Notes: generated by a model not told the origin, from the sequence alone. Positions 10,325 through 33,813 are shown, counted from the first letter of the stretch. The stretch is 53,967 bases of DNA from an uncultured bacterium (GCA_965372535.1 CBDVCR010000002.1:1-53967); one strand, 5' to 3'. A program made the numbers and translations.

Positions 10325-11107
10325 TCATATGCGTATTGGAAACGCCTCTTTCGGGGCCGCGATAAACCCCTGGTGTTTCAATATCTCCTTGTTGTAGGCA
10401 AGCTCCTGCTCTCCCCCGAGGTCCACGACCCTCCCCCCGGCCTCAAGCACTATGGCGTGCCCCGCGGCGGTGTCCCACTCCCACGTGGGGCCGAACCGGG
10501 GGTAGATGTCCGCGGAGCCTTCGGCCACGAGGCAGAACTTGAGGGAGCTTCCCGCGAATATCAGTTTATCCACCGGGATTTTCCTCTTGAACTCCTCAAG
10601 CTCCGGGGAGCCGTGCGAGCGGCTGGCGACAACCACAAGGCCGCCTGTTTCCGGCCACGGCCTGACGCGTATCCTCACCGGCCCGCCCTCCCCGTCCCGC
10701 CTGTACGCCCCAATGCCCTGTGCGGCGTAATACGTCCTGTCCCGCACGGGGACATGGACGACCCCGAGCACGGGACGCCCGGCTTCCAAGACGGCGATGT
10801 TGACGGTAAACTCCCCGTTACGGTTGATGAACTCCTTTGTGCCGTCCAGGGGGTCCACGAGGCAGAATTTCTCCCACCCCTTGCGGACGGCGTACTCCGT
10901 GCCCCCGTCCTCTTCCGAAAGCACGGGGATGCCGGGCGCAAGCCCCTTAAGGCGCGCCTTTATGATTTCATGGGAGCGGGTGTCGGCAAGGGTAAGCGGA
11001 GAGCGGTCTTCCTTGTAGGAGACCCCGAAATCCCCGCTGCCGTAGACATCGAGGACGGCTCGCCCGGCCTCTTTCGCCGCTTCAGCCAGTCTTTCGAGAA
11101 ATTCCAT
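10325..11107 (-). CDS. cysQ: 3'(2'),5'-bisphosphate nucleotidase (PAP phosphatase)
   Basis: 'SPLTLADTRSHEII', 'VLSEEDG' and 'WEWDTAAGHAI' motifs of the inositol monophosphatase/CysQ family. Confidence 0.9.
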   Translation of the reverse strand: MEFLERLAEAAKEAGRAVLDVYGSGDFGVSYKEDRSPLTLADTRSHEIIKARLKGLAPGIPVLSEEDGGTEYAVRKGWEKFCLVDPLDGTKEFINRNGEFTVNIAVLEAGRPVLGVVHVPVRDRTYYAAQGIGAYRRDGEGGPVRIRVRPWPETGGLVVVASRSHGSPELEEFKRKIPVDKLIFAGSSLKFCLVAEGSADIYPRFGPTWEWDTAAGHAIVLEAGGRVVDLGGEQELAYNKEILKHQGFIAAPKEAFPIRI

Positions 11108-11123
11108 GGGCCGGACCCGGGGG

Positions 11124-11733
11124 CTACATCAACAGGATGAATTTATTATGGTCAAGAAATTCGAGGATTTTCCGGACGGACTCCTCGACGCTCAACTCGT
11201 CGGTGTCGAGCACCACGTCCGGGTTTTCCGGCTCCTCGTAAGGGGCGTCCACGCCGGTATAGTTTTTTATAACCCCCGCCCTGGCCTTTTTATACAGCCC
11301 CTTGGGGTCGCGTTTCTCGCACACCTCGATGGGGCACCTGACGTAGACCTCAAAGAAATTTTCCTTCCCCGCGATGTCCCGCACGAACTCCCTGTCCTCC
11401 CTGTACGGGGAGATAAAGGCGCTGAGCACTACGATTCCGGCGTCGGAAAAGAGCTTCGCCACCTCGGCGATTCTCCGGAGGTTCTCCCGCCTGTCCTCGC
11501 GGCTGAAGCCCAGGTTGGAGTATGATGCCGTGCCGCACGTTGTCGCCGTCGAGCACGTACCCCCTGACGCCCCTGTCAAACAGGTCCTTCTCCAGGTGGT
11601 GGGCTATGGTGGACTTGCCGGAGGCCGAAAGCCCGGTAAACCAGACTATGCCGCTCCGGTGCTTGTTCATCACGTTGCGTTCTCGCCCGTTTACCAGGTT
11701 TTCGTGCCATACAACGTGTTCCATAATCTCCAT
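11124..11733 (-). pseudogene. cysC: adenylylsulfate (APS) kinase, reading frame broken by a 1-nt insertion
   Basis: The N-terminal part sits in ORF 11350..11733 ('[15 protein letters not shown]...[11 protein letters not shown]'). The C-terminal part sits in ORF 11124..11579 ('[23 protein letters not shown]...[11 protein letters not shown]'). There are 13 nt where 12 are expected between RHG and LGFS (11514-11526). Confidence 0.8.
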
Positions 11734-11870
11734 CCCCTCGGGCCGGCCAGGCGTCCTGCCCGTCCGGAACCTTATTCGATGTATTGTTTAATTATATTTT
11801 ACAAGGACTTATGGATGCAACAGGCAGGGTCTTTCATTCCTGCCGGGGCCTGGCCCGGAAAGGGAAAAGC

Positions 11871-13739
11871 CTACCCCTGGGCGGCCCTGTAGCCCGGCAC
11901 CAGTCTGCCGACCACGGGGTAGATTTCCTCCTCCGAGCCGCGCTCGACCGCTTCCCTCAAGGAAGCCATGCAGTCATTTATCTCGTCCGGGGACGGCGGG
12001 TCGGTGACGGCGATTCTGAGCTTTTCGTGTGAGGTGCCGACCATCCTCTCGGAGTCGTCGAAGAGTTCCTCGTACAGTTTCTCCCCCGGCCTGAGACCCG
12101 TGAACTCGATTCTTATGTCCTCCTCCGGGACAAAGCCCGAAAGCCTTATCGCGTTTTCCGCAAAATCGACTATCCTGATGGGCTCGCCCATGTCGAGGAC
12201 GAATATCTCCCCTCCCTTGCCCGTGGAGGCCGCTATAAGTACCAGTTGCACGGCCTCCGGTATCAGCATGAAGAACCTTTTTATCTCCGGATGGGTGACG
12301 GTCACCGGGCCGCCGCGGGCAATCTGCTCCTTGAAGACATGTATGACGCTCCCGTTGCTTCCGAGGACGTTGCCGAACCTGACAGTGGTAAATTTCGTGC
12401 CGTAGCGCGAGGCGGCGTCCAGGACGAGCAGCTCGGCCATGCGCTTTGTGGCGCCCATGATGTTGGTGGGGTTCACGGCCTTGTCGGTCGAGACCATCAC
12501 GAAACTCTCCACGCCGTGCCGCCCCGAGACGTCTATTAAATTCCTTGAACCGAAAACATTGTTCTTCACGGCCTCGACGGGGTTGCTTTCCATGAGCGGG
12601 ACGTGCTTGTGCGCGGCGGCGTGGAAGACCATCTGCGGCCTGTGCCGTTCAAACAGGCACTCGAGCCTCCGCTCGTCCAGGATGTCGCCGATAACGCCGA
12701 CGACCCTTTCGCCGGGGCCTTCCCTGCGAAGCTCCATGTCTATCTCGAAAAGGCCGTTTTCGTACCTGTCAAGCAGTACGAGCTCCGATGGCCCGTACTT
12801 TATTATCTGCCTCGAAAGCTCCGAGCCGATGGAGCCGCCGGCGCCGGTCACCATGACCCTCCTGCCCCCGATATACTCCCTTACCGACTGGATGTCCGTC
12901 CTTACCGGCTCCCTCTGCAGGAGGTCTTCCATGGAGAGGGGTTTTATCTGCGAGACCGAGACGTCGCCGCTCAGGATGTCGCGCAGGCCCGGAAGAGTCT
13001 TGATGGTCACGTTAAAGGGCTTGCACGTCTCGTATATTTTCCGGACGGCCCTGTTGCTTGCCGAGGGTATGCAGACGATGATTTCCTCGGGCTTGCGTTC
13101 CCTGACGATTCTCTCTATCAGGCTCATCGGCCCCAGGATGGGGACCCCGTGTATGGAAAGCCCCTTCTTGTACGGGTCGTCGTCTATGAACCCGACGGGC
13201 TTGTAGGAATACCTGGGGTTGTTGCGCATGTCCCTCACTATCATCTCGCCGGCGTCCCCGGCCCCCACGATGAGCACCCTCCTGCCGGACGCCTCGGACT
13301 GCAGGTATTCCCTCAAGACCCGGACGCTCAACCTCGCGCCCCCGGCAAAGAATATCAGCATCATCCAGTCCAGTATATATATGGAGCGGGGATACGCCAT
13401 CTCCCCGAAGACGTACCTGACCAGCACGACGAACACCGCGCTCCCGGCGCTCACGGAAGCCGCAATCTTTACGAGGCTGCTTATGCCCGAATACCGCCAC
13501 AGGTCCCTGTTAAGCCTCATTCCGAAATAAAACACCAGCCGGACGGCGACCAGATAGGGCAGGTACCTGAGCATCAGCAGGACCTGGTCCGGGGGTATTG
13601 CCCACTCGAACCTGAGAAAGAACGCAAGGTAGTTGGCCAGCACGGCCTGCACGATATAAAAAGCCGTAACAACCAGGGGCCTGTACCTGATTATAAGGTT
13701 CCTGGTTGCCGGCAACGTCCTGGAAGCGGACTCTACCAT
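11871..13739 (-). CDS. membrane-bound NDP-sugar 4,6-dehydratase (CapD/PglF/WbpM family)
   Basis: Four N-terminal TM helices, two Rossmann motifs ('VLIVGAGDAGE', 'VMVTGAGGSIGSEL') and 'MVSTDKAVNPTNIMGATKRMAE'. Confidence 0.9.
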   Translation of the reverse strand: MVESASRTLPATRNLIIRYRPLVVTAFYIVQAVLANYLAFFLRFEWAIPPDQVLLMLRYLPYLVAVRLVFYFGMRLNRDLWRYSGISSLVKIAASVSAGSAVFVVLVRYVFGEMAYPRSIYILDWMMLIFFAGGARLSVRVLREYLQSEASGRRVLIVGAGDAGEMIVRDMRNNPRYSYKPVGFIDDDPYKKGLSIHGVPILGPMSLIERIVRERKPEEIIVCIPSASNRAVRKIYETCKPFNVTIKTLPGLRDILSGDVSVSQIKPLSMEDLLQREPVRTDIQSVREYIGGRRVMVTGAGGSIGSELSRQIIKYGPSELVLLDRYENGLFEIDMELRREGPGERVVGVIGDILDERRLECLFERHRPQMVFHAAAHKHVPLMESNPVEAVKNNVFGSRNLIDVSGRHGVESFVMVSTDKAVNPTNIMGATKRMAELLVLDAASRYGTKFTTVRFGNVLGSNGSVIHVFKEQIARGGPVTVTHPEIKRFFMLIPEAVQLVLIAASTGKGGEIFVLDMGEPIRIVDFAENAIRLSGFVPEEDIRIEFTGLRPGEKLYEELFDDSERMVGTSHEKLRIAVTDPPSPDEINDCMASLREAVERGSEEEIYPVVGRLVPGYRAAQG

Positions 13740-13782
13740 GGCGGATTTTCTTTCCTTGCCTGATTATATGGATGAGCTTCGA

Positions 13783-14370
13783 TTATTTCACCATCTTCGC
13801 AAGCGTTTTAAATATTAACCTTATATCGTTTATAAAGCTCTGTTCCCTTATGTATTTCCTGTACAAGTCTATCTTCGCGGGCAGGACTTCATTTATATAT
13901 CCTTCCTCGGGGTACTGAAACCTCTTGAGGACGGATTCCTCGTCGCTGAACTCTATGGCGGCGTAATCGGTTATGCCTGGTTTTACGGCGAGTATCTCCT
14001 CGTAATCTTTTCTGAACGCCTCGACGTATTCAGGCATTTCGGGCCTCGGCCCGACAAAACTCATGTCCCCCTTAAGGACGTTGAAAAGCTGAGGCAGTTC
14101 GTCAAGCTTCGTTTTCCTCAGAAACCCGCCGACCCTCGTAATCCGGGGGTCGGCTCGGGCGGTAACCTTCGGCCCGAGTCCCGGGGCGCCGGCGACCATC
14201 GTCCTGAACTTGTAAAGGTCAAAGGGCTTGAAGCCCTTCCCGACCCTCTCCTGAACGAAAAAAACCGGGCCGCCGCTCTCCGCTTTTATGATAACCGAAA
14301 GGACCAGGAAAAGGGGCAGGGACGCAATAAGCCCGATTGTTGAGAAAACAATATCAAAGGCCCTTTTCAC
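13783..14370 (-). CDS. initiating undecaprenyl-phosphate sugar phosphotransferase (PglC/WbaP-C-terminal type)
   Basis: 'MKRAFDIVFS..', 'GGPVFFVQERVGKGFKPFDLYKFRTM', 'DELPQLFNVLKGDMSFVGPRP'. Confidence 0.9.
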   Translation of the reverse strand: MKRAFDIVFSTIGLIASLPLFLVLSVIIKAESGGPVFFVQERVGKGFKPFDLYKFRTMVAGAPGLGPKVTARADPRITRVGGFLRKTKLDELPQLFNVLKGDMSFVGPRPEMPEYVEAFRKDYEEILAVKPGITDYAAIEFSDEESVLKRFQYPEEGYINEVLPAKIDLYRKYIREQSFINDIRLIFKTLAKMVK

Positions 14371-15539
14371 CTCTTGAACCTGCCCGCGACGTCAAGGACG
14401 GATTGCGCCACCCTGTCCACCTCCTCGTCAGTCATTGACGGGTAGATGGGAAGGGAGACAATCCTCTTGTACGCCTCATGCGTAACCGGAAAGTCCTCCG
14501 GCTTATACCCGTACGTCAAACGGTAATACGGGTGGATATGGAGAGGTATAAAATGCACCGACGTCCCAATCCCCCGCTCCCGCAGCTCTTCTATGAACCG
14601 GTCTCTGTCTATGGCAAGTGCGTCGAGGTTGAGCTTCAGCACATAGAGGTGCCGGCTGTGCAGGGTGCCGGCGCGCACGGAAGGCGTTTCCGCCTGCGGC
14701 AGGCCCCTGAAGGCGGCGTTGTAGGCGGACGCGATGCGCTCCCGCTTTTCGAGGAGGAAACCGGCCTTCCCGAGCTGGGCGAGTCCCATCGCCGCCGCCA
14801 CGTCAGTCATGTTGTACTTGTAGCCCGGGGCCACAATCTCGTAGTGCCAGTTGCCCTCGGCGGTGTAGCGCTTCCATGCGTCCCTGCTTATGCCGTGCAG
14901 GCTCATTACGCGCATCCGTTCGGCCCATTCCGCGTTGTCCGTTACCGCCATCCCGCCCTCCCCGGTGGTGATGGTCTTTGTGGCGTAGAAGCTGAAGCAG
15001 GTGATGTCGCCTATGGCGCCGATGTTTCTCCCCCGGTATTTTGCGGGCAGCGCATGGGCGGCATCCTCTATGACGCAGAGGCCGTTGTCCTTCGCGACCC
15101 TCAAGATGGAGTCCATGTCGCACGGCTGCCCCCCGTAGTGTACGGGGATTACGGCCTTCACCCTTTCCCCGCTCCCCCTGAGCCTTGCGACGGTCTCCTC
15201 AAGCCCTGAGGCGTCCATGTTAAGGGTATCGGGCTCTATGTCGACAAAGACCGGCCTGGCGCCCTGGTACCGGATTACCTCGGCAGTGGCGGCAAACGTC
15301 ATGGGCGTCGTGACCGCCACGTCCCCTTCCTCCAGCCCTACGGCGTCCAGGGCGAGGTGGAGCGCGGCGGTGCAGGAGTTAAGCGCCACGGCGTGTTTTG
15401 CGCCGACGTAGCCGGCGAACTCCTCCTCGAACCGCTTAACCTTCGGGCCGGTGGTTATCCAGCCCGTGCGGAGGGAGTCCACCACCCCGTCAATCTCGTC
15501 GTCCGTTATGTACGGCTTATGAAAGGGGACGTGTCCCAT
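14367..15539 (-). CDS. DegT/DnrJ/EryC1-family sugar aminotransferase (PglE-like)
   Basis: 'FEEEFAGYVGAKHAVALNSCTAALHLAL' and the PLP-lysine region 'SFYATKTITTGEGG'. 4-nt overlap with the downstream gene. Confidence 0.9.
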   Translation of the reverse strand: MGHVPFHKPYITDDEIDGVVDSLRTGWITTGPKVKRFEEEFAGYVGAKHAVALNSCTAALHLALDAVGLEEGDVAVTTPMTFAATAEVIRYQGARPVFVDIEPDTLNMDASGLEETVARLRGSGERVKAVIPVHYGGQPCDMDSILRVAKDNGLCVIEDAAHALPAKYRGRNIGAIGDITCFSFYATKTITTGEGGMAVTDNAEWAERMRVMSLHGISRDAWKRYTAEGNWHYEIVAPGYKYNMTDVAAAMGLAQLGKAGFLLEKRERIASAYNAAFRGLPQAETPSVRAGTLHSRHLYVLKLNLDALAIDRDRFIEELRERGIGTSVHFIPLHIHPYYRLTYGYKPEDFPVTHEAYKRIVSLPIYPSMTDEEVDRVAQSVLDVAGRFKR

Positions 15540-15572
15540 GCCGTTGCGCCTCCAGGCGTATGCACAATAAAT

Positions 15573-16445
15573 TCATACGGTATAACCGAGTTTTTGCATG
15601 GTTTGGCCGATGTATTTCATGGCTCCGTCAACTCTGCCCTTCGGCAGGGACAGGTAGTTGTTAATACTGGGCTTTATTCCCTTGCGAATCGTGACAATCC
15701 CATCCTCAATGCCCTTGTCATGGTCAAACTTATGATAATCGATTACCGCGGGCTCGCAGGGAATGCCAAGGTAATCAAAAAGGGCGCCGAGTATGCCTTC
15801 CGGTTTTGTAACGAGGTCTTCATAGCGCATCTCAAACGCCGCCCCGGACCTGCATACGCCGGTGCTTTTCATCTTCCCGACCTGCTCCGCCCAGAAATTG
15901 GCGTATCCCGCAAACCTGTCGTCAAAATTATTCCTCGATACGTATTGGTCAGGCACGTGGAAGTGGCGCCTGTAAAGGGAACAGGCAACGTCCAGCCCGT
16001 TTCGGTAGATGAAAACGAATTTCGCTTTTTGCTCGAACAATTCGCTTAGAACATCCACGTAATCGACATGGTCCGGGGTCTTGTCGGCCCAATAGACCTT
16101 ACCTTTTGATTGCGCGTAATTCATAAAGTAATAATCTATGTAATTACGCGTCATCTTAAACACATGGTCCTTCTCAAACCCCATTGATTCCAGCCCTTCC
16201 AGGGCTTCCCTGTTTGAGAGCATCTTCAATAAGTCCACTATGAACTTCGACTCCGGGGGGCAGGCTATCTTGCTGTGGGAGTCAAGCATTCTCCTTAAAA
16301 GCGAAGTGCCCGACCTGTAGCATCCGATTATGAAAATAGGCGGGTTAGGGCTATAATCGGCCCTGCCCTCGAAAACGACTTTTTTCGAGGGCATGAGAAG
16401 CTTGATATTATAATAAAGCTTTTGATATATGTCCCTTATATTCAT
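15573..16445 (-). CDS. sulfotransferase (intact)
   Basis: 5'-PSB loop 'IFIIGCYRSGTSLLRRML' and a 3'-PB-like 'FVFIYRNGLDVACS'. AT-rich. Confidence 0.8.
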   Translation of the reverse strand: MNIRDIYQKLYYNIKLLMPSKKVVFEGRADYSPNPPIFIIGCYRSGTSLLRRMLDSHSKIACPPESKFIVDLLKMLSNREALEGLESMGFEKDHVFKMTRNYIDYYFMNYAQSKGKVYWADKTPDHVDYVDVLSELFEQKAKFVFIYRNGLDVACSLYRRHFHVPDQYVSRNNFDDRFAGYANFWAEQVGKMKSTGVCRSGAAFEMRYEDLVTKPEGILGALFDYLGIPCEPAVIDYHKFDHDKGIEDGIVTIRKGIKPSINNYLSLPKGRVDGAMKYIGQTMQKLGYTV

Positions 16446-16516
16446 TCTGTATTTACCTCAAATTATCATTAGCCGTGAAACCTCGCAATTTTATCACGAT
16501 ATGCATGCTTTTGTTA

Positions 16517-17161
16517 TCAGCAGTCAAGGTTTTTTCTGAACCTATAGCATTCTCTGGTTTCCTTTTCGATGCGCATGCCTGCTTTCTTATAAAATGATAT
16601 TGCTCTCTCGTTACCTTTCATGACCGACAGGCGATAAGTATTGATTCTATTCATGCATAAAATTCCATTGAATTTATTGAGCATATGCAGTGCAATCCTC
16701 TTTCCTTTGAGTTGAGAGTCAACTGCGATGGACAAAAGACTGAAATCATGTTTTGGTAAGCTGCAATTATTTCCAGTGCGCTTCATGCGGGAGCGAAGTG
16801 CGGCTACAACATGAGAAATTCTGTTGAGCATTCCCCTACGTACAATCGCAGACCGTATAAATGCAAGCACAACCCTATAACAGCAAAACAGAAAATTTTT
16901 CCTGAAAAAACGGGACCGGGCAAATTCAATATGTTGCCCCCCAACTATGAACCCTATCATTCGGCCATGCCTGAAAGCCCCAATGCTCAATTTATTGTAT
17001 TCAATCAATTCCTTATAATAACGCTTTATAAGCTCAGTCCCAAGCGCTGTGAGGAAATATTCAGGGAATGCCGCCTGGTGCAACTGTGCGACCTGAAAAG
17101 CATCATGAGTGTCGAGGAAGCTAAACGCAATGGTATCTTTTTGCATTGGCGTGCTCTCCAT
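16517..17161 (-). CDS. GNAT-family N-acetyltransferase
   Basis: Motif A-like 'LLSIAVDSQLKGKRIALHML' and 'NERAISFYKKAGM'. Confidence 0.7.
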   Translation of the reverse strand: MESTPMQKDTIAFSFLDTHDAFQVAQLHQAAFPEYFLTALGTELIKRYYKELIEYNKLSIGAFRHGRMIGFIVGGQHIEFARSRFFRKNFLFCCYRVVLAFIRSAIVRRGMLNRISHVVAALRSRMKRTGNNCSLPKHDFSLLSIAVDSQLKGKRIALHMLNKFNGILCMNRINTYRLSVMKGNERAISFYKKAGMRIEKETRECYRFRKNLDC

Positions 17162-17188
17162 TATTTTCCATTCACTACCATTAGCATT

Positions 17189-18274: not shown

Positions 18275-18277
18275 ATA

Positions 18278-21461: not shown

Positions 21462-21552
21462 CCCTTGCCTCCTTTTACGTTTTAAGAGCAACCCTTGCCT
21501 CCTTTTACGTTTTAAGAGCAACCCTTGCCTCCTTTTACGTTTTAAGAGCAAC
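21459..21552 (-). repeat. perfect tandem repeat, 3.1 x 30 bp
   Basis: The unit on the coding (minus) strand is TGCTCTTAAAACGTAAAAGGAGGCAAGGGT. It spans the wzx stop, an SD and a TTG. Confidence 0.95.
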
Positions 21553-22812: not shown

Positions 22813-22889
22813 CCGGAGGCCCCTTTCGAGCGGTGTTCATAAGTTTCACCCTTATTGCAAACAGCTTATTCATCGGATACGACTTTTAC

Positions 22890-25253
22890 TCAATACGAGG
22901 AACCCTTTTCCGCTCCCCCGCTGCCGGCCTTCAGGCTCTCGATCCTTTTTCTCGCATACTTGTTGCCCGGGTCGATAAGCAGCGCCTTCCCGTACTCCTC
23001 GGCGGCCCGGTAGGGGATGCCGGTCCTCTCGTAAAGGCTCCCCAAAGTTATCCGTATGCCGGCGTTGTCGGGCAGGGCACTGGCGGCCTTCCGCATAACC
23101 CCAAGCGCCTCGTCCAGACGCCCGTCTTTTGCGAAATGCCGGCGGACCCTTAAGAAATACGAAGGGTCCGGTTCCTTTTCGCCTACGGCGTACTCGACCG
23201 CCTTAAGGTATGCCCTTTCTGCCATGCCCTTTCTGCCCGTCTCGAGGAGGAAATCCCCGTAGTCCAGATACGGCCTTGCCTTCTCCGGAAGCGCCCTTTC
23301 CATCTCCCCGAGGTCCAGCCCCCGGAGCAGCATGGCCGCGATATAGCCCCTCGTATTTTCCGGCTCTATTGATATCGCCCTGCCCATCTCCACAAGCCCC
23401 CGCTCCCTCTCCCCTCGCCAGAAGAGCCACAGGGCGTACCGCCTGTGCACGGCCGGGTTCATCGGCTCGCACGCGGCCCCGGAAGCCAGCAACTTGTCCG
23501 CCATTTCGTAATCTTCACGCTGCGAGAACGCCAGGGCCGCCCTCTGCAGGTATCCGCCGTTTAAGGGGTCAAGGCCGACGGCCTTTCCGTAATGCCTTAA
23601 GGCCTGGTCTTTCTCTGAAAGCAGCAGCGCGGCGTCGGCCCCGGCGTAGGGGTACTTCGCCTCAAGGGGGTCGAAAATCGACGCCCTGTAAGCGCGCTCC
23701 TTCATCCGCTTAAGGGCCTCAGCCGGGGTATGCCTGTCAAGCTCCATGTCCTCCACGGATGAAAAACCGGACTTCGCTGTAATTACCCCCGCGTTGGCGC
23801 CCGTAACCAGGAGGGCCGCAAGGGCCGCAAGGGCCAGGTGTTTGGCGGGAAACGGCCGTCCCATGCCCTTAAGGTACGTGCCGTCTCTTCTAATCCTCGT
23901 ATGGGCCGCCGAAACGGCAAGCCCGGCGAGGAAGAAGAAGTAAAGTCCGTTGGCGCCTATGTGGAGGTTGAAGTCCGTAAACCCGTGAAACAGGAAATAC
24001 GCCATTCCGGCCAGAGCGCCCAGGGCCAGATAAATCGAATACGGCTCCATCCTCACGGCCAAGGCCCTCGCCGTCCTGATAAATACCGCGGCCAGGAACC
24101 AGCCCGCCAGGGCCGAGCCGACAAGACCCCCTTCCACGAGAAGCTCCAGATAATCGTTGTGGGCATGGTCCACGATGCGGCCGTTGGAAATGGAGCCGAA
24201 CACCTTATAAACGTGAACATAGCTGCCAAAACCCGTCCCGAAAACCGGGAAACGACCGATGATGCCCAGGCTGTCCTTCCAGAGGTCCACCCTAAGGTCG
24301 CTGATATCGCCGGAGGCGCCCCTGAGCCGCCCGAACCGCTCAAAGACCGGCTCCCACCCGAACCAGCCCACCGAAAACAAAAGGAGGACGAAAACCAGCA
24401 TGATGACCAGGCCCCTTTTCAGGTCCTTTCCAAGGAGCAGGGCACCCAGCAGGAGCATGGAAAAACAGAGGCTTATAATCCCTCCCCTTGAGAGCGAGAC
24501 AAAGACCGACGCCCCGATAAGCACGGCGGAAAACACAAGCAGCACGTATACGTTGGTCCTTCTCTGGTTGAATATCCCCACCACCGTCTCACGCAGAGAC
24601 TTATAGGCAACCTTCGGCTTATAGGCGAGCAAGAGGCCCACGACGACCGGCAGCACCATGCCCATGAACCCGGCGTAGTGGTCCCTGTTTACGTAAGGCC
24701 CGAAGGGGATGCCTCCCCTCGTAAGCTCCCTGAACCATAAAACCTTCTCGGGCGCGGCAAAATGCTGCAGTATGCTCGAAAGCGCAAGCGCCGTGGCGAA
24801 GACGGAAACCAGGGCGGCGGTTTTCCTGAGGCGTCCGGCCCCGCTTAAAAGCTGCACCGTGAGGACGTAGAACATGGCATAGGACGTAAAACGCACGCCC
24901 TCAAGCACGGTCGCCTTTTTGTTGAGGGAAAGCGACATCCACCCCGAAGGCTCAAGTATCCCCGCCGTCCCCTGGTAAAGCCCGTATGTGGCGGGCGAGA
25001 GGAGCTTGACCGCCGCCGCAGGAAGCGGCAGAACCTGAAAGAACATGTAAACCCACAGGCAGAGGAGGGGCAGGAACCCGGGCACTTCGTAAAGCCGCGC
25101 CTCCCCGCGCCGTGCGCCTGTTCCAACGAGCATCAACAGGGCGGCCGCGGTAAGGCACTGCATGAGAGCCAGCGACCACGTCTCCACGGACCCGAACGCC
25201 AGGGGAGAGAAAAGCAGGACAAAAAGGAATATCCTGTAAACGGCCTTATGCAT
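22890..25253 (-). CDS. O-antigen ligase-like (Wzy_C) membrane domain fused to a C-terminal TPR domain
   Basis: 'VDHAHNDYLELLVEGGLVG' within a polytopic N-terminal half. The C-terminal ~300 aa are TPR-like. Confidence 0.8.
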   Translation of the reverse strand: MHKAVYRIFLFVLLFSPLAFGSVETWSLALMQCLTAAALLMLVGTGARRGEARLYEVPGFLPLLCLWVYMFFQVLPLPAAAVKLLSPATYGLYQGTAGILEPSGWMSLSLNKKATVLEGVRFTSYAMFYVLTVQLLSGAGRLRKTAALVSVFATALALSSILQHFAAPEKVLWFRELTRGGIPFGPYVNRDHYAGFMGMVLPVVVGLLLAYKPKVAYKSLRETVVGIFNQRRTNVYVLLVFSAVLIGASVFVSLSRGGIISLCFSMLLLGALLLGKDLKRGLVIMLVFVLLLFSVGWFGWEPVFERFGRLRGASGDISDLRVDLWKDSLGIIGRFPVFGTGFGSYVHVYKVFGSISNGRIVDHAHNDYLELLVEGGLVGSALAGWFLAAVFIRTARALAVRMEPYSIYLALGALAGMAYFLFHGFTDFNLHIGANGLYFFFLAGLAVSAAHTRIRRDGTYLKGMGRPFPAKHLALAALAALLVTGANAGVITAKSGFSSVEDMELDRHTPAEALKRMKERAYRASIFDPLEAKYPYAGADAALLLSEKDQALRHYGKAVGLDPLNGGYLQRAALAFSQREDYEMADKLLASGAACEPMNPAVHRRYALWLFWRGERERGLVEMGRAISIEPENTRGYIAAMLLRGLDLGEMERALPEKARPYLDYGDFLLETGRKGMAERAYLKAVEYAVGEKEPDPSYFLRVRRHFAKDGRLDEALGVMRKAASALPDNAGIRITLGSLYERTGIPYRAAEEYGKALLIDPGNKYARKRIESLKAGSGGAEKGSSY

Positions 25254-25959
25254 TTACCGTCTCCCCGGCTAAGACCGCCTCGGGGTTTGAAAAAACCAGC
25301 CTCAGCGCCCGCTCCTTGCCGAGGACTTTACCGGCGGCCTTAAGCGCCCCGGAGAGCACCGGCCTTCTCCCCCGGCTCGAATGGGCGTCGGTGGCGATAA
25401 AACTCACCACCCCCCTTTCCAGCAGAAAGAAGGCGCACTCCCGCGCTTCGGAGCCGAACCCGCCGGTAAGGCTTCCGGCCGTTATCTGAACGAGCGCGCC
25501 CGTCTCCACCAGCCTGAGCAGCGCCGAGGGGTCCCTCATTATGGTGCAGTTCCGCTCGGGGTGGGTGATTATGGGCCTAATGCCCTCCACCATGAGCCTG
25601 AAGAGGACTTCCCCTGCGCTTCGGGGGAGAAAAACGTGGGGGAATTCGACGAGCAGGTAGCCCGTCCCGTTAATCGTGTGCCCCCTCAGCAACGAGGGGT
25701 CCAGCGACGCGTCCGTATCCGCCCCCGGCAATATCCTGAGCGGGATGTCCTCTTCGGCAATCCTTGCGTTTAACTCCCCGACCCTCTCCCGCACAAGCGC
25801 GGGAGGGCATGCGTCGTCCTTTACATGAGGAGTGGCCACGACCCTGGTAATGCCGTCCAGCGCCGCGACCCTCGACATCTCCAGGGACTCCGCCATGTCT
25901 GAAGGCCCGTCGTCGATGCCCGGAAGGATATGGCAGTGGATGTCTATCATGGCGGTCAA
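25246..25959 (-). CDS. PHP-family protein-tyrosine phosphatase (CpsB/YwqE type)
   Basis: 'MIDIHCHILPGIDDGPSDMAESLEM', 'VVATPH', 'ATDAHS'. Confidence 0.85.
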   Translation of the reverse strand: MTAMIDIHCHILPGIDDGPSDMAESLEMSRVAALDGITRVVATPHVKDDACPPALVRERVGELNARIAEEDIPLRILPGADTDASLDPSLLRGHTINGTGYLLVEFPHVFLPRSAGEVLFRLMVEGIRPIITHPERNCTIMRDPSALLRLVETGALVQITAGSLTGGFGSEARECAFFLLERGVVSFIATDAHSSRGRRPVLSGALKAAGKVLGKERALRLVFSNPEAVLAGETVNA

Positions 25960-25989
25960 CGGGAAGAGGGGAAAAACCGCGTTGTTTTC

Positions 25990-28209
25990 CTAAACGGGCT
26001 TTTTATCTTTTTCCTCTTCCTCTGAATAATAATAGTTGTAGTACCTGTAATAATAGTAATAATCGCTTTTGCTCAGGTCCAGGGCATTGATGAGAAGGCC
26101 GAAGACATGGGGCCTGATATCCTCGGTACGCCGCCCCTCGAGGGTTTTCAGCCCGTTCCTCACAAAATCATACGACGTCTTGCCCGCCCTTACCACCAGT
26201 ATCGTCCCGTCAAACCGCCTGCTCATCACGAGGCTGTCCGTTACCGTGAGCACGGGCGGAGAGTCGCAAACGACCACATCGTACTTCTCCTTCAGCCTGG
26301 AAAGCAGGACGTTGAACCTTTCGGCGCTCAGGAGTTCCGACGGGTTCGGGGGGATGGGCCCCGAAGTTATGATGTCGATTGCGGGCAAAGGCCCCTTTTG
26401 TATGATTGGAGAGGCATCGCCGGCCAGATACGTACTAAGCCCCCTGTTGTTGGGCTTTTCGAATATCTTATGCACCGCCGGCTTCCTCAGGTCGGCGTCC
26501 ATCAGGAGCACTCTGCGGCCCGCCTGCGCCACGGCCAGGGCGAGGTTTACCGAAGTGGTCGTCTTGCCCTCGCCCGGCCCGGAGCTTGTCACCAGTATGC
26601 ACTTTGGCGGGGCGCCGGCGGAAGAAAGCATGATGGCCGTCCTGAGCGCCTTATAGCTCTCCGCATATGTGGATTTCGGCTCGTTAACCACGACCATCTC
26701 TATGCCGCCTTCGTCGGAACCCTTCTCCTCCTTTTTAAGCGATACCGTGCCCAGTACCGGCACGCCGAGCCTGGCCTCCGCCTCTTCGGGCGACTTGACC
26801 GTATTGTCGAGATACTCGATGAAAAACGCAAGCCCCACGCCCCCGAAAAGCCCCATGACGATGCCCAGGAGCATGTTCAGGAGTTTTTTCGGTTTCACGG
26901 GATCCTCGGAAGGCTCGGCCTCTTCCACAATCCATACGTTCACGCTGTGTATTTCCTCGGTGATGCGCTGCTCCTTCATTTTAGTTATGAGCGAATCGTA
27001 AAGCTGGCTGTTCGTCTCGACTTCCCTTTTCAGCACGCTGTACTGGATGAACTTCTCGTTCAGGTTCAGGGCCTCCTGCTTGGTCTCCGAAAGGAGGCTC
27101 CCGAGGTTTTTCTCGTTGGAGAGGGCGAGTTCATACTCATTTTTTATTGACTCCATGACCCTTTTGGTCTCCTGCTTCCTCTTCCTGTTCAGCATATCGA
27201 GGTCCCCCCGGGCCTTTATCATCAGGGGGTGCTTCTTGCCGTATTTTTTCGAAAGCTCCATGACGTTCTTCTCGGCGCCTATAACCTGCTCGCGTATCGA
27301 GCGCAGGATGCTGTCGGAGGATATGACGGGCAGGGACTCGGCCCCCCGAAGGTCCCTGGGCAGGGCCTTTATTTTATCGTACAGCGTTCCGATTTCCTTC
27401 CTTTTGGCCTCGGCCCGGGTCAGGTTGGTGCTCAATTCCGAAAGCTTCTCGGGTATGATGGTGAGCCTGTCCTGGAGCGTGACGATGTCCCTGTCCTGCA
27501 TGTACTTCTGGAGGGCCCTCTCGGACTCCTCGAGCTTCGCCCCCTCCTCCTGGGTCTTTTTCGTCATCCACTGGAGGGTGTTCTTGGAGGCGTTCATCTT
27601 CATCTCGAAAGTGGCCTCGATGTAGGCTTTCGCCGCGGTATTGGCGACCAGGCTCGATAGCTCGGGGTTTTCGGACATGTAGCTTATGTTGATTATCTTT
27701 GTGTCCTTTATGGGTTTGACCTTGATGCCGTCGAGTATCGACTTGACTATATCGCCCTTGAGCGAACCGTCCTCCTCCCCGGCTTCCGGGGGCGTCTCGC
27801 CTTTTTTCAGGCCCAGCAGCTTGAGCGAGACGGCATAAAACTCCGAGAACCAGCCCAGGGGAGACATCCCGGCGACGCCGAAACCGTGGCCGCCCTTGAA
27901 ATAGGCGCGGAACGTCCTGTCCGGCGAGAGCATGTCCACGATTTTACCGGCTACGCGCTTGCTCCTTATAATCTGGTACTGCGTCCCGAAAAACTCGGGG
28001 TCATAAGTGCTGTAGCGGATTTCCTTGATAAGGGAATACGGTTCGACTTTTTCCACATAGAGCTTGGTCGTGGACATGTACAGAGGGGTAGTGGTAAAAG
28101 TCGCTATCACGACGACCGCGAACACGACCACGAAAAAGGTGCCGGCGGTAAACCGCCTTTTCCGGAGGACCTTGAGGTAGTCCCATAAATGCGCTTCGTT
28201 TTCGACCAC
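25990..28209 (-). CDS. polysaccharide co-polymerase / BY-kinase (Wzc-like)
   Basis: Wzz-like N-terminus with 2 TM helices and a coiled coil. Walker A 'SSGPGEGKTTTSVNLA', 'DADLRKP', 'VVCDSPPV', and a C-terminal Tyr cluster 'DYYYYYRYYNYYY'. Confidence 0.9.
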   Translation of the reverse strand: MVENEAHLWDYLKVLRKRRFTAGTFFVVVFAVVVIATFTTTPLYMSTTKLYVEKVEPYSLIKEIRYSTYDPEFFGTQYQIIRSKRVAGKIVDMLSPDRTFRAYFKGGHGFGVAGMSPLGWFSEFYAVSLKLLGLKKGETPPEAGEEDGSLKGDIVKSILDGIKVKPIKDTKIINISYMSENPELSSLVANTAAKAYIEATFEMKMNASKNTLQWMTKKTQEEGAKLEESERALQKYMQDRDIVTLQDRLTIIPEKLSELSTNLTRAEAKRKEIGTLYDKIKALPRDLRGAESLPVISSDSILRSIREQVIGAEKNVMELSKKYGKKHPLMIKARGDLDMLNRKRKQETKRVMESIKNEYELALSNEKNLGSLLSETKQEALNLNEKFIQYSVLKREVETNSQLYDSLITKMKEQRITEEIHSVNVWIVEEAEPSEDPVKPKKLLNMLLGIVMGLFGGVGLAFFIEYLDNTVKSPEEAEARLGVPVLGTVSLKKEEKGSDEGGIEMVVVNEPKSTYAESYKALRTAIMLSSAGAPPKCILVTSSGPGEGKTTTSVNLALAVAQAGRRVLLMDADLRKPAVHKIFEKPNNRGLSTYLAGDASPIIQKGPLPAIDIITSGPIPPNPSELLSAERFNVLLSRLKEKYDVVVCDSPPVLTVTDSLVMSRRFDGTILVVRAGKTSYDFVRNGLKTLEGRRTEDIRPHVFGLLINALDLSKSDYYYYYRYYNYYYSEEEEKDKKPV

Positions 28210-28210
28210 G

Positions 28211-29002
28211 CTAAAAATAACTCTCCGGGACCACGATTACGTCGTCGGGCAGGACCTTTTCGTCCATCTTCACCTTCTTGATGACTTTTTCCACGCCGTC
28301 GATTTTTCTGATAATCCTTATCCTGCCCTCGGCCGCCTTGTCCGAGAGGCCACCGGCCATGGTAACCGCCTGGATTACCGTCGTGCCTTCCTTGACCGTA
28401 TAGGAATCGGGCTTTTTCACCTCGCCCGTGACATACACGACCCCGGCCCTTGATATGTACACCGTATCGCCGTCAAAGACGGGGATGTTCAGGGAGGAGT
28501 CGCCCTCCTCAAGCAGCCTCTTGAGGTCTATGGTATTGACCACCGCGCTTCCTTCGTCCGACATGCGCTTGATAATCGCCGTGTCGCCCGCTTCCTTCGT
28601 CAGGCCCCCGGTCATGGAAAGGAGCTCATGAAAAGTCGTGTTCCCCTTTAACTCATAAAGCCCGGGGTTCTTCACCTCCCCCATGACGGCGGTCTTCTGG
28701 CTCCTGAACTCCTCGATAAACACCGACACCTGGGGCATGACAATGTAGCCGTCGGCAAGGAGGGAGGCGATTTTTTCCGATAGCCCGGAGACCGAAAGAC
28801 CTTCGACCCCGACAACGCCGATTAAGGGGAATTTAATCGTGCCGGCCCCGCTGACCCTCTCGACGGTCGTCAGGTCGTCGTGCCCGTAAACCTTTATCTT
28901 GACTACGTCACCCTCGCCCACGCTGTAGTCAAGGGCGAAGAGTGGAAAAGCGACGGCCAGGCAGAAAAACAGGAGAGCCGATGTCATGGACTGCTTCTTC
29001 AT
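28211..29002 (-). CDS. polysaccharide export protein (Wza-like, Poly_export + SLBB)
   Basis: Start set at 'MKKQSMTSALLFFCLAVAF' (signal peptide). 'YSVGEGDVVKIKVYGHDDL' follows. Confidence 0.85.
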   Translation of the reverse strand: MKKQSMTSALLFFCLAVAFPLFALDYSVGEGDVVKIKVYGHDDLTTVERVSGAGTIKFPLIGVVGVEGLSVSGLSEKIASLLADGYIVMPQVSVFIEEFRSQKTAVMGEVKNPGLYELKGNTTFHELLSMTGGLTKEAGDTAIIKRMSDEGSAVVNTIDLKRLLEEGDSSLNIPVFDGDTVYISRAGVVYVTGEVKKPDSYTVKEGTTVIQAVTMAGGLSDKAAEGRIRIIRKIDGVEKVIKKVKMDEKVLPDDVIVVPESYF

Positions 29003-29113
29003 TTGGAAGGACGCACCTTTATCGCCGTTTCTTAATGCCGATTGCATTATTATAAAATACCCGCAACCGATAAATAAAGGTGTTTAAATGGATTCGGGCA
29101 ATGCCGAACGCAA

Positions 29114-30787
29114 CTAAAGCGACGCGGTTATCCTGAAAAACACCCTGTTGTTCCTGAAGTCAAAAATATCCGCATTGGACGCCCTCTCCGTATAAGCGTA
29201 ACCGATGTCCGCGAAAAACCACTTTACGGCCTCATACCTGAAGGCGACCACCCCCCTGTATATCTCGTCTTTTCTTTGCTTTGCCGCCCCTCCGAACGTG
29301 TCGAACGTCCTCTCGTCGTACGACGCGCTCAGGCTGACGGATACCCTGCGGGTAAACCTCTGCGCGTAATCCGCCCTGACGCTGTTTGAAAGCACGAACT
29401 CCGAAGTCTGGACGTCGACCTCCTCTCTTTCTCTCGAAACCGAGAGGTTTAAGAAAGTCTTGGGCGTGAAGTTATGCCGCAACCTGCCCGCGAGCACGAA
29501 CGTCTCGTTGCCTTCGCCCAAGGGGTCCCGGCGTTTCTCTCTGACCCCGTAGCCCGCCTTCACCCTCCCGGTGGACTTCGCCGTCACGTCCCACTCGAGC
29601 CCGCCGAAATAATTCCGTTCAACGCTGTCGGGGAGGACGTCCGTGTCATAATCTATGTCGATGTATTCGTACTGGAGGAACGCCGAGGTCATGGCCGTGG
29701 TCTTATAGAAAACATAGCCCGAATAGACATCGTCCCTTCGGTTTCTGAATTCACTCTGCGCCCGCCCGTAATCCGCCAGAAAGCCGGCATATTCGGCTTT
29801 CAACCTGAGCCTCGCAAACTGATACGACAACGCCGCGCCGCCGCGGTAGTTGAAGAAGTCCTCCGGGTCGCCGGGCAGACCGGCGCCGGTGCTGTCGCGG
29901 GACTTAAGAAAACGCCCCGAAAGGCCCAGCCCGATGCCTCCCCTCGAATTAAACAGGAGCTTCCCCTCCGCCTTATGGTGTGTGAAGTCCTGCGAAGAAC
30001 TTTCCTTGAATTTCTCCACGTCCGCCTGGTATATGAGATATGCCTGAAAGACCCTGTCCGAACCCGGAAAATCGTCGTCCCCGCCGCCCGGCACATGCGC
30101 GGAAATATTTTTCCACCTCCTGGCCTTCCTGCTGCCCGGCGCCGCCAGCCACACCCCGGGCGAGACCACGGTCACATAATCCGAGACCTCGCCGCTTGCG
30201 GTACCGAAAAGGTTATCGGTGTGGACCTCCGATATGGAGAGAAAAGGGTGGAAATACCCTCCCTTTTTTTTTAGCATGTCCCATGAGATGCGGCCCTGTT
30301 CATACGACGGGGCAGGTGCTTTCCCGGCTGCTTCGCCCTCCAGTACCTCCTCAGCCACAACCAGCACGGGAGCCGGCCCCTGTTCGGCTTCCGGCTCGAT
30401 GTCTTCGGACAATGGGACGGGAATTTTTTCTTCAGTGGCCGCCGTCGTTTCGGCCAGGGAGGTTTCGGCCAGGGGGCAGGAAACCACTGACACGGACTTG
30501 ACGGCGTTGACTGCAAACGCATCGCGGAACCCGGTGCTCCTTAACTTGTCCCTCATGTAAAGGGCCTCGTCCATGGAGCCGAACTCCCCGCAATGGACCT
30601 TGTGAAAGCCGTCTTCATTAACAATCCTGCATTCGATGTCCTTGTTCCGCAGGTCGCAGACCACTCCCTTTGCGTTTCTGAGTATTATAAAACTCCCCAC
30701 CTGAACGGAAAAAAAATCCGACGCACACGCAATGGAAGAAAACAGCAGGAAAAGAGCAATCGATATCGCATGGATATTCAAACGCAA
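29114..30787 (-). CDS. SPOR-domain protein fused to a predicted outer-membrane beta-barrel (EpsL-like)
   Basis: Signal peptide and SPOR-like 'FFSVQVGSFIILRNAKGVV...HKVHCGEFGSMDEALYMRDKLRSTGFRDAFAV'. The C-terminal ~370 aa have alternating Y/F/R beta-strand patterns. Confidence 0.7.
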   Translation of the reverse strand: MRLNIHAISIALFLLFSSIACASDFFSVQVGSFIILRNAKGVVCDLRNKDIECRIVNEDGFHKVHCGEFGSMDEALYMRDKLRSTGFRDAFAVNAVKSVSVVSCPLAETSLAETTAATEEKIPVPLSEDIEPEAEQGPAPVLVVAEEVLEGEAAGKAPAPSYEQGRISWDMLKKKGGYFHPFLSISEVHTDNLFGTASGEVSDYVTVVSPGVWLAAPGSRKARRWKNISAHVPGGGDDDFPGSDRVFQAYLIYQADVEKFKESSSQDFTHHKAEGKLLFNSRGGIGLGLSGRFLKSRDSTGAGLPGDPEDFFNYRGGAALSYQFARLRLKAEYAGFLADYGRAQSEFRNRRDDVYSGYVFYKTTAMTSAFLQYEYIDIDYDTDVLPDSVERNYFGGLEWDVTAKSTGRVKAGYGVREKRRDPLGEGNETFVLAGRLRHNFTPKTFLNLSVSREREEVDVQTSEFVLSNSVRADYAQRFTRRVSVSLSASYDERTFDTFGGAAKQRKDEIYRGVVAFRYEAVKWFFADIGYAYTERASNADIFDFRNNRVFFRITASL

Positions 30788-30843
30788 TTAAACCCGTCCG
30801 GCCAAGTGTTGTTAAAGTGTATGAACATCCGTTACAGACCGGA

Positions 30844-31356
30844 TTAAAAGCCCGAAGGACTGAGAGCGAGGCCGGGCTCATTCTCTCCCCAGCAGGGCAA
30901 CTCGATTGTCGCGGGCTCGTAAATCATCGTTTCGCCCACGCCGGCCCGGGCCACCTCGGCCTTGGCGGCGTCCGCCTCGACGGCGCTGGTTTCGGTTTCC
31001 GCGGCCCGGGTAATTCCCTTGGGCGCCGTGCTGATTGCGATTTCAACCGCGGAGGGTTCGACGCCCGCATCGACCGCCCCCTGCACGATTACGTCCACGG
31101 CCGCACCGGCCTCCAGCGCCCCGCACACCACGTCATTGAGGTCCGCCCCGGCCTCAAGGGAATATCTGACGACTTCATATGCATTCGAGCCCATTTCTAT
31201 GGCCGTCTTGACGACGTAATTCGCGTCTTTTCCCTCGCGGATTAAACGCTGGACAGCTGAATAGATGTCTTCTTCGACGTCCTGGGCAAAGGCTCCCGCC
31301 CCGCCTATGAAAAGAAAAAACAAAACGCTTAAAAAAACCGCCGCCTTGAATTTCAT
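30844..31356 (-). CDS. secreted repeat protein, unknown function
   Basis: Signal peptide 'MKFKAAVFLSVLFFLFIGGAGAFA' and about four ~14-aa 'A.EAGA...DVV'-type repeats. It is the first gene of the minus-strand locus. Confidence 0.55.
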   Translation of the reverse strand: MKFKAAVFLSVLFFLFIGGAGAFAQDVEEDIYSAVQRLIREGKDANYVVKTAIEMGSNAYEVVRYSLEAGADLNDVVCGALEAGAAVDVIVQGAVDAGVEPSAVEIAISTAPKGITRAAETETSAVEADAAKAEVARAGVGETMIYEPATIELPCWGENEPGLALSPSGF

Positions 31357-31800: not shown

Positions 31801-31914
31801 GCCCCTTATTTACAGGGAAGCCTTTGACCGGCTCAGGGCCGATGCCCCGTTTTAGAGGGGGCCGTGCCCCCTCTCGCAAGAAGAGGGAAAGGGGATGAAG
31901 GAAAACAGGGTGCA

Positions 31915-31950
31915 ATCCCCGGCGCTTTTTAAGCGCCGGGGATTTTTATT
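31915..31950 (+). terminator. intrinsic terminator (probable riboswitch expression platform)
   Basis: 11-bp stem ATCCCCGGCGC / GCGCCGGGGAT with a 7-nt loop, followed by TTTTATT. It lies just before AGGAGG and ATG 31964. Confidence 0.75.
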
Positions 31951-31963
31951 TCAGGAGGCATCG

Positions 31964-33783: not shown

Positions 33784-33813
33784 ATATCCATATCAAACTA
33801 AAACGGAGGAATT

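Follow-up and report, generated by a model that had tools for sequence, protein, structure and literature searches.

The window analysed in this work, a stretch of 53,967 nucleotides from an uncultured bacterium (GCA_965372535.1 CBDVCR010000002.1:1-53967), is contig C2 of a metagenome bin of 2.79 Mb (220 contigs, completeness 99.5%). From position 31356 to 10325 its minus strand carries a co-directional array of 21 kb, a predicted surface-polysaccharide locus in which two sulfotransferase genes, here called ST1 and ST2, occur together with cysC, encoding an adenosine 5'-phosphosulfate (APS) kinase for the synthesis of 3'-phosphoadenosine 5'-phosphosulfate (PAPS), and cysQ, whose product removes the by-product 3'-phosphoadenosine 5'-phosphate (PAP). 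In the order of transcription, the array encodes a protein of 170 amino acids (aa), an outer-membrane barrel, Wza, Wzc, a PHP phosphatase, a Wzy_C protein with TPR repeats, Wzx, ST2 and Wzy, followed by two family 2 glycosyltransferases (GT2), a GNAT acetyltransferase, ST1, the PglE-like, PglC-like and PglF-like proteins and, after a gap of 137 nucleotides (nt), CysC and CysQ. Gene classes were assigned by listing open reading frames (ORFs) and by profile scans with Pfam and NCBIfam, and every class named in the original prediction, which had proposed a sulfated polymer, was recovered on the minus strand where it had been placed. The overlaps of 1-8 nt that it had described as many amount to three (4, 4 and 8 nt), so that the word was generous, and two other junctions are gaps of 1 and 3 nt. 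The genes and features related to sulfation are the following:

10325-11107, minus strand: cysQ, 3'(2'),5'-bisphosphate nucleotidase (PAP to AMP), intact; TIGR01331 277 bits against a cut-off of 228.8, Inositol_P 5.6e-51
11124-11733, minus strand: cysC, APS kinase, split by an insertion of 1 nt into two ORFs in different frames
15573-16445, minus strand: ST1, intact PAPS-type sulfotransferase; Sulfotransfer_3 5e-33, profile positions 1-215
15573-21454, given without strand: low-GC cassette from ST1 through ST2; 42-48% GC per gene against 56-63% in the flanks
20405-21461, minus strand: ST2, second sulfotransferase, frame-shifted, with the phosphosulfate-binding loop and the remainder in separate ORFs
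21410-21417, minus strand: run of eight T (T8) where the reading frame of ST2 breaks; seven (T7) would restore it
21459-21552, minus strand: 30-bp unit repeated three times in tandem without mismatch; 3.1 copies of period 30 with 100% matches by Tandem Repeats Finder

The sulfotransferases and the cysC-cysQ pair

ST1 looks like an active enzyme, as judged from its invariant PAPS-binding motifs, a glutamate of the kind found in tyrosylprotein sulfotransferases (TPSTs) and a confident structural model. All of 34 homologues share the 5'-phosphosulfate-binding (5'-PSB) loop GCYRSGTS, the 3'-phosphate-binding (3'-PB) residues R148..D152..S156 and Glu65, so that the invariant positions include G41, R44, S45, G46, T47, E65, R148, D152 and S156, and the AlphaFold2 model has a pLDDT (per-residue confidence score) of 91.4. 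When this model was searched with Foldseek, TPST1/2 were the best matches (E 1e-12, template-modelling (TM) score 0.71-0.76), the sulfotransferase domains of CurM/OLS came next, and the heparan-sulfate enzymes (NDST, 3-OST) scored about 0.48-0.50. TPST1/2 are also the best sequence matches in the PDB (E ~1e-9, identity ~22%), and the invariant glutamate of ST1 aligns with their catalytic base. ST1 is 90% identical to its counterpart in the sister locus L053 and 96% in L050, and all seven genomic contexts of the family that were examined (7/7; homologues of 39-96% identity) are Wzx/Wzy polysaccharide loci, although many homologues carry the label "protein-tyrosine sulfotransferase" of the Joint Genome Institute (JGI). 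A search of the genome contigs for related loci with ST1 as query returned no match. We place ST1 in a TPST-like bacterial clade whose acceptors are most likely glycans. The original prediction had pointed to domain annotation of both sulfotransferases as a check, and had regarded a non-carbohydrate family as an argument against itself. Both proteins are Sulfotransfer_3 members and the contexts of ST1 are glycan loci, but the structures nearest to ST1 are those of TPSTs, so that this objection is indeed touched.

For ST2, the Pfam match was confined to the C-terminal half of the ORF at 20405-21454 (349 aa), and the 5'-phosphosulfate loop, RFVFLLYNSRSGSTFF, was found in the overlapping ORF at 21348-21551. 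The RSGST core of this loop and the 3'-PB motif FRDPRAVVNS are thus both present, in different frames on either side of the T8 run. With T7, the gene would encode 351 aa that match Sulfotransfer_3 at positions 8-214, and the intact homologues P0122-P0124 read MRFxFLxYxSRSGSTxLAxxL without interruption. ST2 is rare, with only three homologues, at 30-35% identity, in a large protein collection. Of the two sulfotransferases predicted, ST1 is therefore intact and ST2 is not a single ORF, being split at 21410-21417. The T8 run lies 44 nt past the TTG start of ST2 (21461), which is preceded by AAGGAGG, and a 5' coding homopolymer whose length sets the reading frame is a feature of contingency genes that vary in phase by slipped-strand mispairing. 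The 30-bp repeat covers the wzx stop, the Shine-Dalgarno sequence AAGGAGG and the ST2 start; its first copy provides the last five codons of wzx and the TAA, and each copy holds AAGGAGG and an in-frame TTG, so that translation of ST2 could start at three positions, with 10 or 20 additional residues (LLKRKRRQGL). One loose contig end in the read run X1 resembles a single-copy version of this repeat; it may reflect collapse of the de Bruijn graph and was not used.

The original prediction placed cysC and cysQ at the end of the array; cysQ is intact, while cysC is not an intact ORF as assembled. Its N-terminal part (11350-11733) matches profile positions 2-48 and its C-terminal part (11124-11579) positions 46-152. 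Alignment to the sister contigs L054 and L053 located the break in one extra T of the coding strand at window position 11522 (ATCA[T]ACTCC), outside any homopolymer or repeat. The read-through product of 202 aa scores 236 bits with PF01583 over positions 2-152, and all the motifs of the family (P-loop, DGDNxR, LGFS, FISP) are present in the split ORF; the sister alleles P0130 and P0131 are intact. Compared with these sisters, the read-through cysC has a dN/dS of 0.09-0.12, the lowest among neighbouring genes, which suggests that the break is either very recent or artefactual. Since read-through cysC and ST2 match their profiles, both breaks are single-base disruptions of otherwise undecayed genes. 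The 137-nt gap between pglF and cysC includes an AT-rich stretch upstream of cysC, and a scan of this gap for promoters and terminators gave nothing decisive. Among 41 genomes of the order, true CysQ was found in 13, mostly cysC carriers, and canonical cysC in about half, which indicates that the pair is accessory and not housekeeping.

Sulfur metabolism of the host and related loci

The AprA of the host shares 87-89% identity with Nitrospirota metagenome-assembled genomes, with further matches in Thermodesulfovibrionales, Dissulfurispiraceae and Magnetobacteriaceae, and we regard the host as an uncultured, Thermodesulfovibrionales-like member of the Nitrospirota. Contig C19 carries the row adk-sat-aprB-aprA-qmoA-qmoB, with Sat (539 bits) and AprA (944 bits) both over their cut-offs, and dsrAB is intact in the genome. 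Since sat-aprBA-qmoAB together with intact dsrAB implies the respiration of sulfate, the host either reduces sulfate in a dissimilatory manner or is functionally close to organisms that do. An internal disruption of dsrA, which a match reporting "2 TAA inside" had raised, was rejected, as the match corresponds to terminal stops only and dsrA is whole.

Neither cysH nor cysD(N) is present in the host genome, and the sole, weak match to the PAPS_reduct family, considered as a candidate cysH, was rejected because it is DndC. A DNA-phosphorothioation cluster with DndB (542 bits) and DndC (659 bits) lies on contig C38 (L029:288-2850). ATP sulfurylase has one genomic match only, the sat gene on contig C19, which bears out the earlier remark that the window holds no ATP sulfurylase; the genome-wide search for sat and cysDN that had been suggested thus returned sat, within the dissimilatory operon, and no cysDN. 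APS for the locus is supplied by this respiratory Sat. Without cysH and cysDN in the genome, PAPS has no assimilatory sink and cysC serves the sulfotransferases; no other plausible role is left for it. The reservation that cysC-cysQ might function in assimilation only is answered by the same absence. A divergent APS-kinase-like P-loop protein is encoded at C101:1410-2039 (L006), with a score of 75 bits where the cut-off is 138.7 and without the DGD, LGFS and FISP motifs, and genes of this type are kept in most genomes of the order, whether sulfotransferases are present or not. As a substitute for cysC this paralogue was judged unlikely on account of its score below the cut-off and its missing motifs.

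The relatives point to a functional link between the PAPS genes and the sulfotransferases. In the Logan contig L053 (~91% nucleotide identity) the order is Wzx-ST-Wzy-GT2-GT2-methyltransferase-ST1-pglE-pglC-pglF-cysC-cysQ with all genes intact, including a cysC of 199 aa, and in the JGI contig L054 (96.7% nucleotide identity) an intact cysC of 202 aa lies between pglF and cysQ. The 99.5%-complete host genome has two Sulfotransfer_3 matches, ST1 and ST2, both at the locus. When 40 genomes of the same order were compared for canonical cysC (>170 bits) and Sulfotransfer_3, 15 had both, 17 had neither, and 4 and 4 had one of the two (Fisher p = 3.4e-4, without phylogenetic correction). Within polysaccharide loci, cysC-cysQ-ST-ST are contiguous in genomes G005 and G025, and a sulfotransferase directly follows cysC in G013 and G032. 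Broken copies of cysC were also observed: in G037, a genome without sulfotransferase, a cysC split by an in-frame TAA adjoins an intact cysQ (G037:C40:22987-24276), and in G029 a cysC remnant covering profile positions 100-152 adjoins cysQ (G029:C63:997-2092). These two cases suggest that loss of the PAPS branch recurs in the order.

Repeat-unit cassette and export genes

The remaining genes of the array are those for sugar synthesis, assembly of the repeat unit, regulation and export:

11871-13739, minus strand: PglF/WbpM/CapD-like membrane UDP-HexNAc 4,6-dehydratase; Polysacc_synt_2 8e-116, CoA_binding_3
13783-14370, minus strand: small PglC-like initiating phosphoglycosyltransferase, 195 aa; Bac_transf 7.5e-63
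14367-15539, minus strand: PglE/PseC-like sugar 4-aminotransferase; DegT_DnrJ_EryC1 6e-130
16517-17161, minus strand: GNAT acetyltransferase; Acetyltransf_1 1.4e-5
17189-18274, minus strand: GT2 glycosyltransferase; Glycos_transf_2 3e-27
18278-19201, minus strand: GT2 glycosyltransferase; Glycos_transf_2 3e-20
19155-20408, minus strand: Wzy-type polymerase; Wzy_C 8.8e-9, 86% identity in L053
21535-22812, minus strand: Wzx flippase; Polysacc_synt 3.8e-21, MatE
22890-25253, minus strand: Wzy_C/O-antigen-ligase domain with TPR repeats; Wzy_C 7.5e-25, TPR families
25246-25959, minus strand: PHP-type tyrosine phosphatase (CpsB/CapC); CpsB_CapC 4.8e-49
25990-28209, minus strand: Wzc-like polysaccharide co-polymerase (PCP-2a) and bacterial tyrosine kinase (BY-kinase); Wzz, GNVR, AAA_31, TIGR01007 184 bits against a cut-off of 108
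28211-29047, minus strand: short outer-membrane polysaccharide export (OPX) protein, Wza-like, 278 aa; Poly_export and two SLBB domains
29114-30787, minus strand: SPOR + EpsL/BBP2_2-like outer-membrane beta-barrel; BBP2_2 3e-22, SPOR 7e-6, TIGR03014 1.5e-15
30844-31356, minus strand: secreted Ala-rich protein, 170 aa, first ORF; signal-peptide-like N terminus

An initiating phosphoglycosyltransferase, a flippase, a polymerase, a PCP-2a/BY-kinase, a phosphatase and an OPX protein are all present, as in Wzx/Wzy pathways. The PglE/PseC-like protein scores 404 bits with TIGR03588, slightly below the cut-off, and the GNAT protein probably N-acetylates the resulting 4-amino sugar. The low GC content of 15573-21454 is a signature of a variable repeat-unit cassette. 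Identity between L050 and the window falls from 96% to ~65% at ~16467, which marks a homology breakpoint, a methyltransferase occupies the position of the GNAT gene in L050 and L053, and L053 is mosaic with respect to the window across the whole cassette. Between wzx and wzy, L053 carries a Sulfotransfer_1-type gene (L053:370-1215, 281 aa) with the loop GAQKAATTT, unrelated to ST2. By these alignments the cassette appears to be mosaic and yet to retain two sulfotransferases, the ST2 slot having apparently been exchanged at a fixed position in L053.

As regards export, the short OPX protein ends in ...VVPESYF, without an amphipathic tail or C-terminal outer-membrane helix, and the barrel gene adjoins it; the EpsL-like barrel is its probable pore partner. 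The EpsE and EpsY models match the OPX protein below their cut-offs, and as the scores for EpsY and EpsL stay under the equivalog cut-offs the likeness is at the level of domains only. The barrel has an N-terminal SPOR (peptidoglycan-binding) domain, a fusion that we did not notice in the literature on composite OPX/beta-barrel translocons. The C-terminal tyrosine cluster of Wzc is YYYYYRYYNYYY, and the Wzy_C protein with TPR repeats is a second polymerase or a ligase. No family in Pfam or NCBIfam matched the secreted 170-aa protein. Outside the array, two TPR proteins (8124-9461 and 9527-10105) are encoded on the opposite strand past the 3' end of cysQ, the first with a 102-bp tandem repeat at 9000-9289 (2.8 copies, 84% matches) that corresponds to TPR units, and the plus strand directly upstream of the locus carries a ThiC-family radical-SAM gene and, after it, cobU (31895-34863).

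Proposed function and comparison with known systems

Our findings suggest, with a probability of roughly 70%, that this is a Wzx/Wzy-dependent, BY-kinase-regulated surface-polysaccharide locus whose version in the lineage is built for a sulfated heteropolysaccharide, and which is broken twice as assembled. Therefore, we hypothesize the following route, in which the individual steps are assigned from gene families, the PAPS supply being in part shown by the present data. The PglF-like and PglE-like enzymes with the GNAT protein would produce a bacillosamine-type 2-acetamido-4-amino(acyl)-2,4,6-trideoxyhexose, which the small PglC-like transferase would load onto undecaprenyl phosphate, and the two GT2 enzymes would lengthen the lipid-linked unit. 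ST1 and ST2 would sulfate this unit in the cytoplasm with PAPS as donor, both the acceptor and the timing being presumed; Sat would make APS, the CysC of the locus would phosphorylate it to PAPS, and CysQ would clear PAP. Wzx would then flip the unit and Wzy polymerise it under the regulation of Wzc and the PHP phosphatase, and the short Wza/OPX protein and the EpsL-like barrel would export the polymer in the manner of a composite translocon. With the CysC step and ST2 broken in the assembly, the polymer of this genotype would be unsulfated or under-sulfated, unless the breaks arose in assembly or reflect slippage that can be reversed.

Sulfation of the glycan in the lineage is well supported. 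The original argument that sulfotransferases, PAPS supply and PAP removal in one locus mean a sulfated polymer holds at that level, given that cysH and cysDN are missing, that the only two sulfotransferase genes of the genome lie at the locus, that cysC, cysQ and sulfotransferases are linked in relatives and that the contexts of ST1 are uniform (7/7); it is weakened for this assembly, in which cysC and ST2 are out of frame, and by the likeness of ST1 to TPSTs. Several points weigh against our interpretation. The genotype as assembled may sulfate nothing, since it appears to make no PAPS by a canonical kinase and to keep one intact sulfotransferase. No read run covers the site of the cysC break in the host strain: in X1, the sole run from the same strain (100% identity, ~3x), the contigs end before both break sites, and the other runs, from relatives of 92-95% identity, lack the extra T. 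Besides, the nearest solved relatives of ST1 are TPSTs and CurM/OLS domains instead of characterised carbohydrate enzymes, a glycan acceptor for ST1 and ST2 is suggested by genomic context only, cysC-cysQ may have their own promoter across the 137-nt gap, and the co-occurrence of cysC with sulfotransferases was calculated ignoring phylogeny.

Whether the two breaks are real bears directly on this proposal, and we lean towards real mutations or population variants. That both stem from errors in assembly or consensus calling, or from minority alleles that the assembler retained, with a sulfation branch as functional as in the sisters, is a serious possibility that we place somewhat below even odds. 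It would agree with the score and low dN/dS of the read-through cysC, the profile match of the read-through ST2, the homopolymer at the ST2 break, the intact cysC of the sister contigs and the origin of the genome in a 220-contig metagenome bin. The cysC insertion, however, stands outside any homopolymer or repeat, which is atypical of sequencing error, and elsewhere in the window each suspicious overlap of ORFs on one strand proved to involve distinct, complete genes, so that no further disrupted gene was found among them. Both hits fall within one functional branch of four genes, and by our own arithmetic the chance that two random hits among ~48 kb of coding sequence would both strike the sulfation genes, which make up 3.3 kb, is ~0.5%. 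Across the genome, signatures resembling frame breaks occur at homopolymers in 9.1% and at random sites in 9.7%, which argues weakly against systematic homopolymer error, the signature being unspecific and the test a weak one. Fragmented cysC genes beside cysQ in G037 and G029 also speak against an artefact. Surface-glycan sulfation in Nitrospirota of the Thermodesulfovibrionales type may be a strain-variable, switchable trait fed from respiratory APS, through exchange of sulfotransferase cassettes, T7/T8 slippage, possibly the triplication of the 30-bp unit, or knockout of cysC; this is a tentative idea that we consider unlikely at present.

Other functions of the sulfation genes also have to be weighed. 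ST1, and perhaps ST2, could be a RaxST/TPST-like enzyme for the sulfation of tyrosine or peptides, with a protein or peptide as substrate, as the top matches to TPST1/2 in sequence (E ~1e-9) and fold (TM 0.71-0.76, compared with ~0.48-0.50 for the heparan-sulfate enzymes), the invariant glutamate at the position of the TPST catalytic base and the JGI labels of many homologues would suggest. We find this improbable, since all seven homologue contexts are Wzx/Wzy loci with glycosyltransferases, Wzy, Wzx and Wzz, ST1 is located between the amino-sugar genes and the glycosyltransferases, and no RaxX-like peptide or RaxAB-type exporter is evident among the ORFs of the array, although no dedicated search was made. 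PF13469 genes are, moreover, known from cyanobacterial exopolysaccharide (EPS) clusters (PMC8205485). It is doubtful, if less so, that the sulfated product is another envelope molecule, for example the core or lipid A of lipopolysaccharide (LPS), a sulfolipid or an O-linked glycan that the ligase-like Wzy_C protein with TPR repeats would attach to protein. The presence of two Wzy_C proteins, of which the TPR-fused one weakly resembles O-glycosylation ligases (TIGR03097, TfpM), would fit such a product, and rhizobia are known to sulfate LPS and lipo-oligosaccharides; both sulfotransferases, on the other hand, lie within the repeat-unit cassette among the Wzx, Wzy and GT2 genes, and L053 keeps two sulfotransferase slots with one gene swapped for an unrelated Sulfotransfer_1, which is the behaviour expected of genes for repeat-unit decoration. 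Least of all do we favour the view that cysC and cysQ form a unit of their own, for housekeeping or assimilation, which merely adjoins the polysaccharide locus. The 137-nt gap with its AT-rich stretch would allow it, and PAP also arises from phosphopantetheinyl transfer, so that a general role of CysQ is conceivable. Such a unit is nonetheless very improbable in a genome without cysH and cysDN, given that neither gene is core in the order (CysQ in 13/41 genomes, canonical cysC in about half) and that in polysaccharide loci the pair is found repeatedly, at varying positions, with sulfotransferases directly after it.

A sulfated heteropolysaccharide made by the lineage would extend the combination of sulfotransferases and PAPS genes to an anaerobic Nitrospirota sulfate reducer, in which the sulfate donor would branch from the energy-conserving sulfate-reduction pathway. 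Few producers of sulfated polysaccharides have been characterised, and hardly any bacterial sulfotransferase for such polymers. ST1 marks a TPST-like bacterial family that is found consistently within glycan loci, which makes it a concrete candidate for biochemistry. Interest in bacterial polysaccharides that carry sulfate concerns glycosaminoglycan-like materials, metal-binding matrices and decoys for phages or the immune system. The paired breaks provide a simple read-level test of whether environmental populations switch sulfation off; switchable sulfation, if true, would parallel the phase-variable decoration of capsules and LPS in pathogens, in an environmental sulfate reducer. In the literature, no paper was found that substantively links Thermodesulfovibrio to sulfotransferases.

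The description of polysaccharide sulfation as relatively uncommon in bacteria was overstated, as clusters with chemical proof have been published (PMC11641403, PMC11766843, PMC8205485). In Vibrio sp. KMM 8419 (PMC11641403) and Cobetia marina KMM 1449 (PMC11766843) a sulfated capsular polymer was proven by nuclear magnetic resonance, and PAPS genes combined with sulfotransferases within a polysaccharide cluster are taken as a hallmark of the synthesis of sulfated polysaccharides (PMC11641403, PMC11766843). The present locus resembles both in having sulfotransferase and PAPS genes inside the cluster, with cysC/cysNC in both and cysQ in Cobetia. Those clusters, however, depend on an ABC transporter (Kps) and have their own cysDN sulfurylase, whereas this locus is of the Wzx/Wzy type without a sulfurylase, must draw APS from the dissimilatory Sat, and has cysC and one sulfotransferase frame-shifted. 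The xss cluster for synechan in Synechocystis sp. PCC 6803 is also Wzx/Wzy-dependent and has two sulfotransferases, of different subfamilies, with about two sulfates per repeat unit, and cyanobacterial EPS clusters were found to include, among other families, Sulfotransfer_3 (PF13469) (PMC8205485). In contrast to the locus described here, the description of that cluster includes no PAPS genes, and PAPS goes unmentioned in the paper (PMC8205485). The xss cluster further differs in its eight glycosyltransferases, its location on a plasmid, its OPX gene lying elsewhere and the phylum and physiology of its host.

A dedicated PAPS supply genetically linked to a glycan sulfotransferase is likewise known from the NodPQ/NodH system for Nod-factor sulfation in rhizobia, although its substrate is a lipo-chitooligosaccharide signal, NodPQ includes a sulfurylase and no Wzx/Wzy machinery is involved. 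In the NCBIfam scan, NoeE gave only a weak match. With TPST1/2 (PDB 5wrj, 3ap1), ST1 shares the fold (TM 0.71-0.76), the PAPS-binding loops and the glutamate at the catalytic base, but these are eukaryotic Golgi enzymes that act on proteins and have ~22% identity to ST1, whose family lies in bacterial polysaccharide loci in 7/7 cases. The export genes resemble the class-3 OPX translocon EpsY/EpsX of Myxococcus xanthus (PMC9601211, PMC9603273, PMC12819527), where a short OPX gene also lies beside a beta-barrel gene; unlike it, the barrel described here has a SPOR domain at its N terminus, the models for EpsY and EpsL score below their cut-offs, and the pair is a putative translocon. Therefore, the design with PAPS genes and sulfotransferases in a glycan cluster is already known from other bacteria, and what is particular here is its occurrence in a Nitrospirota sulfate reducer, without a sulfurylase of its own, with a TPST-like sulfotransferase family and with a double frame break.

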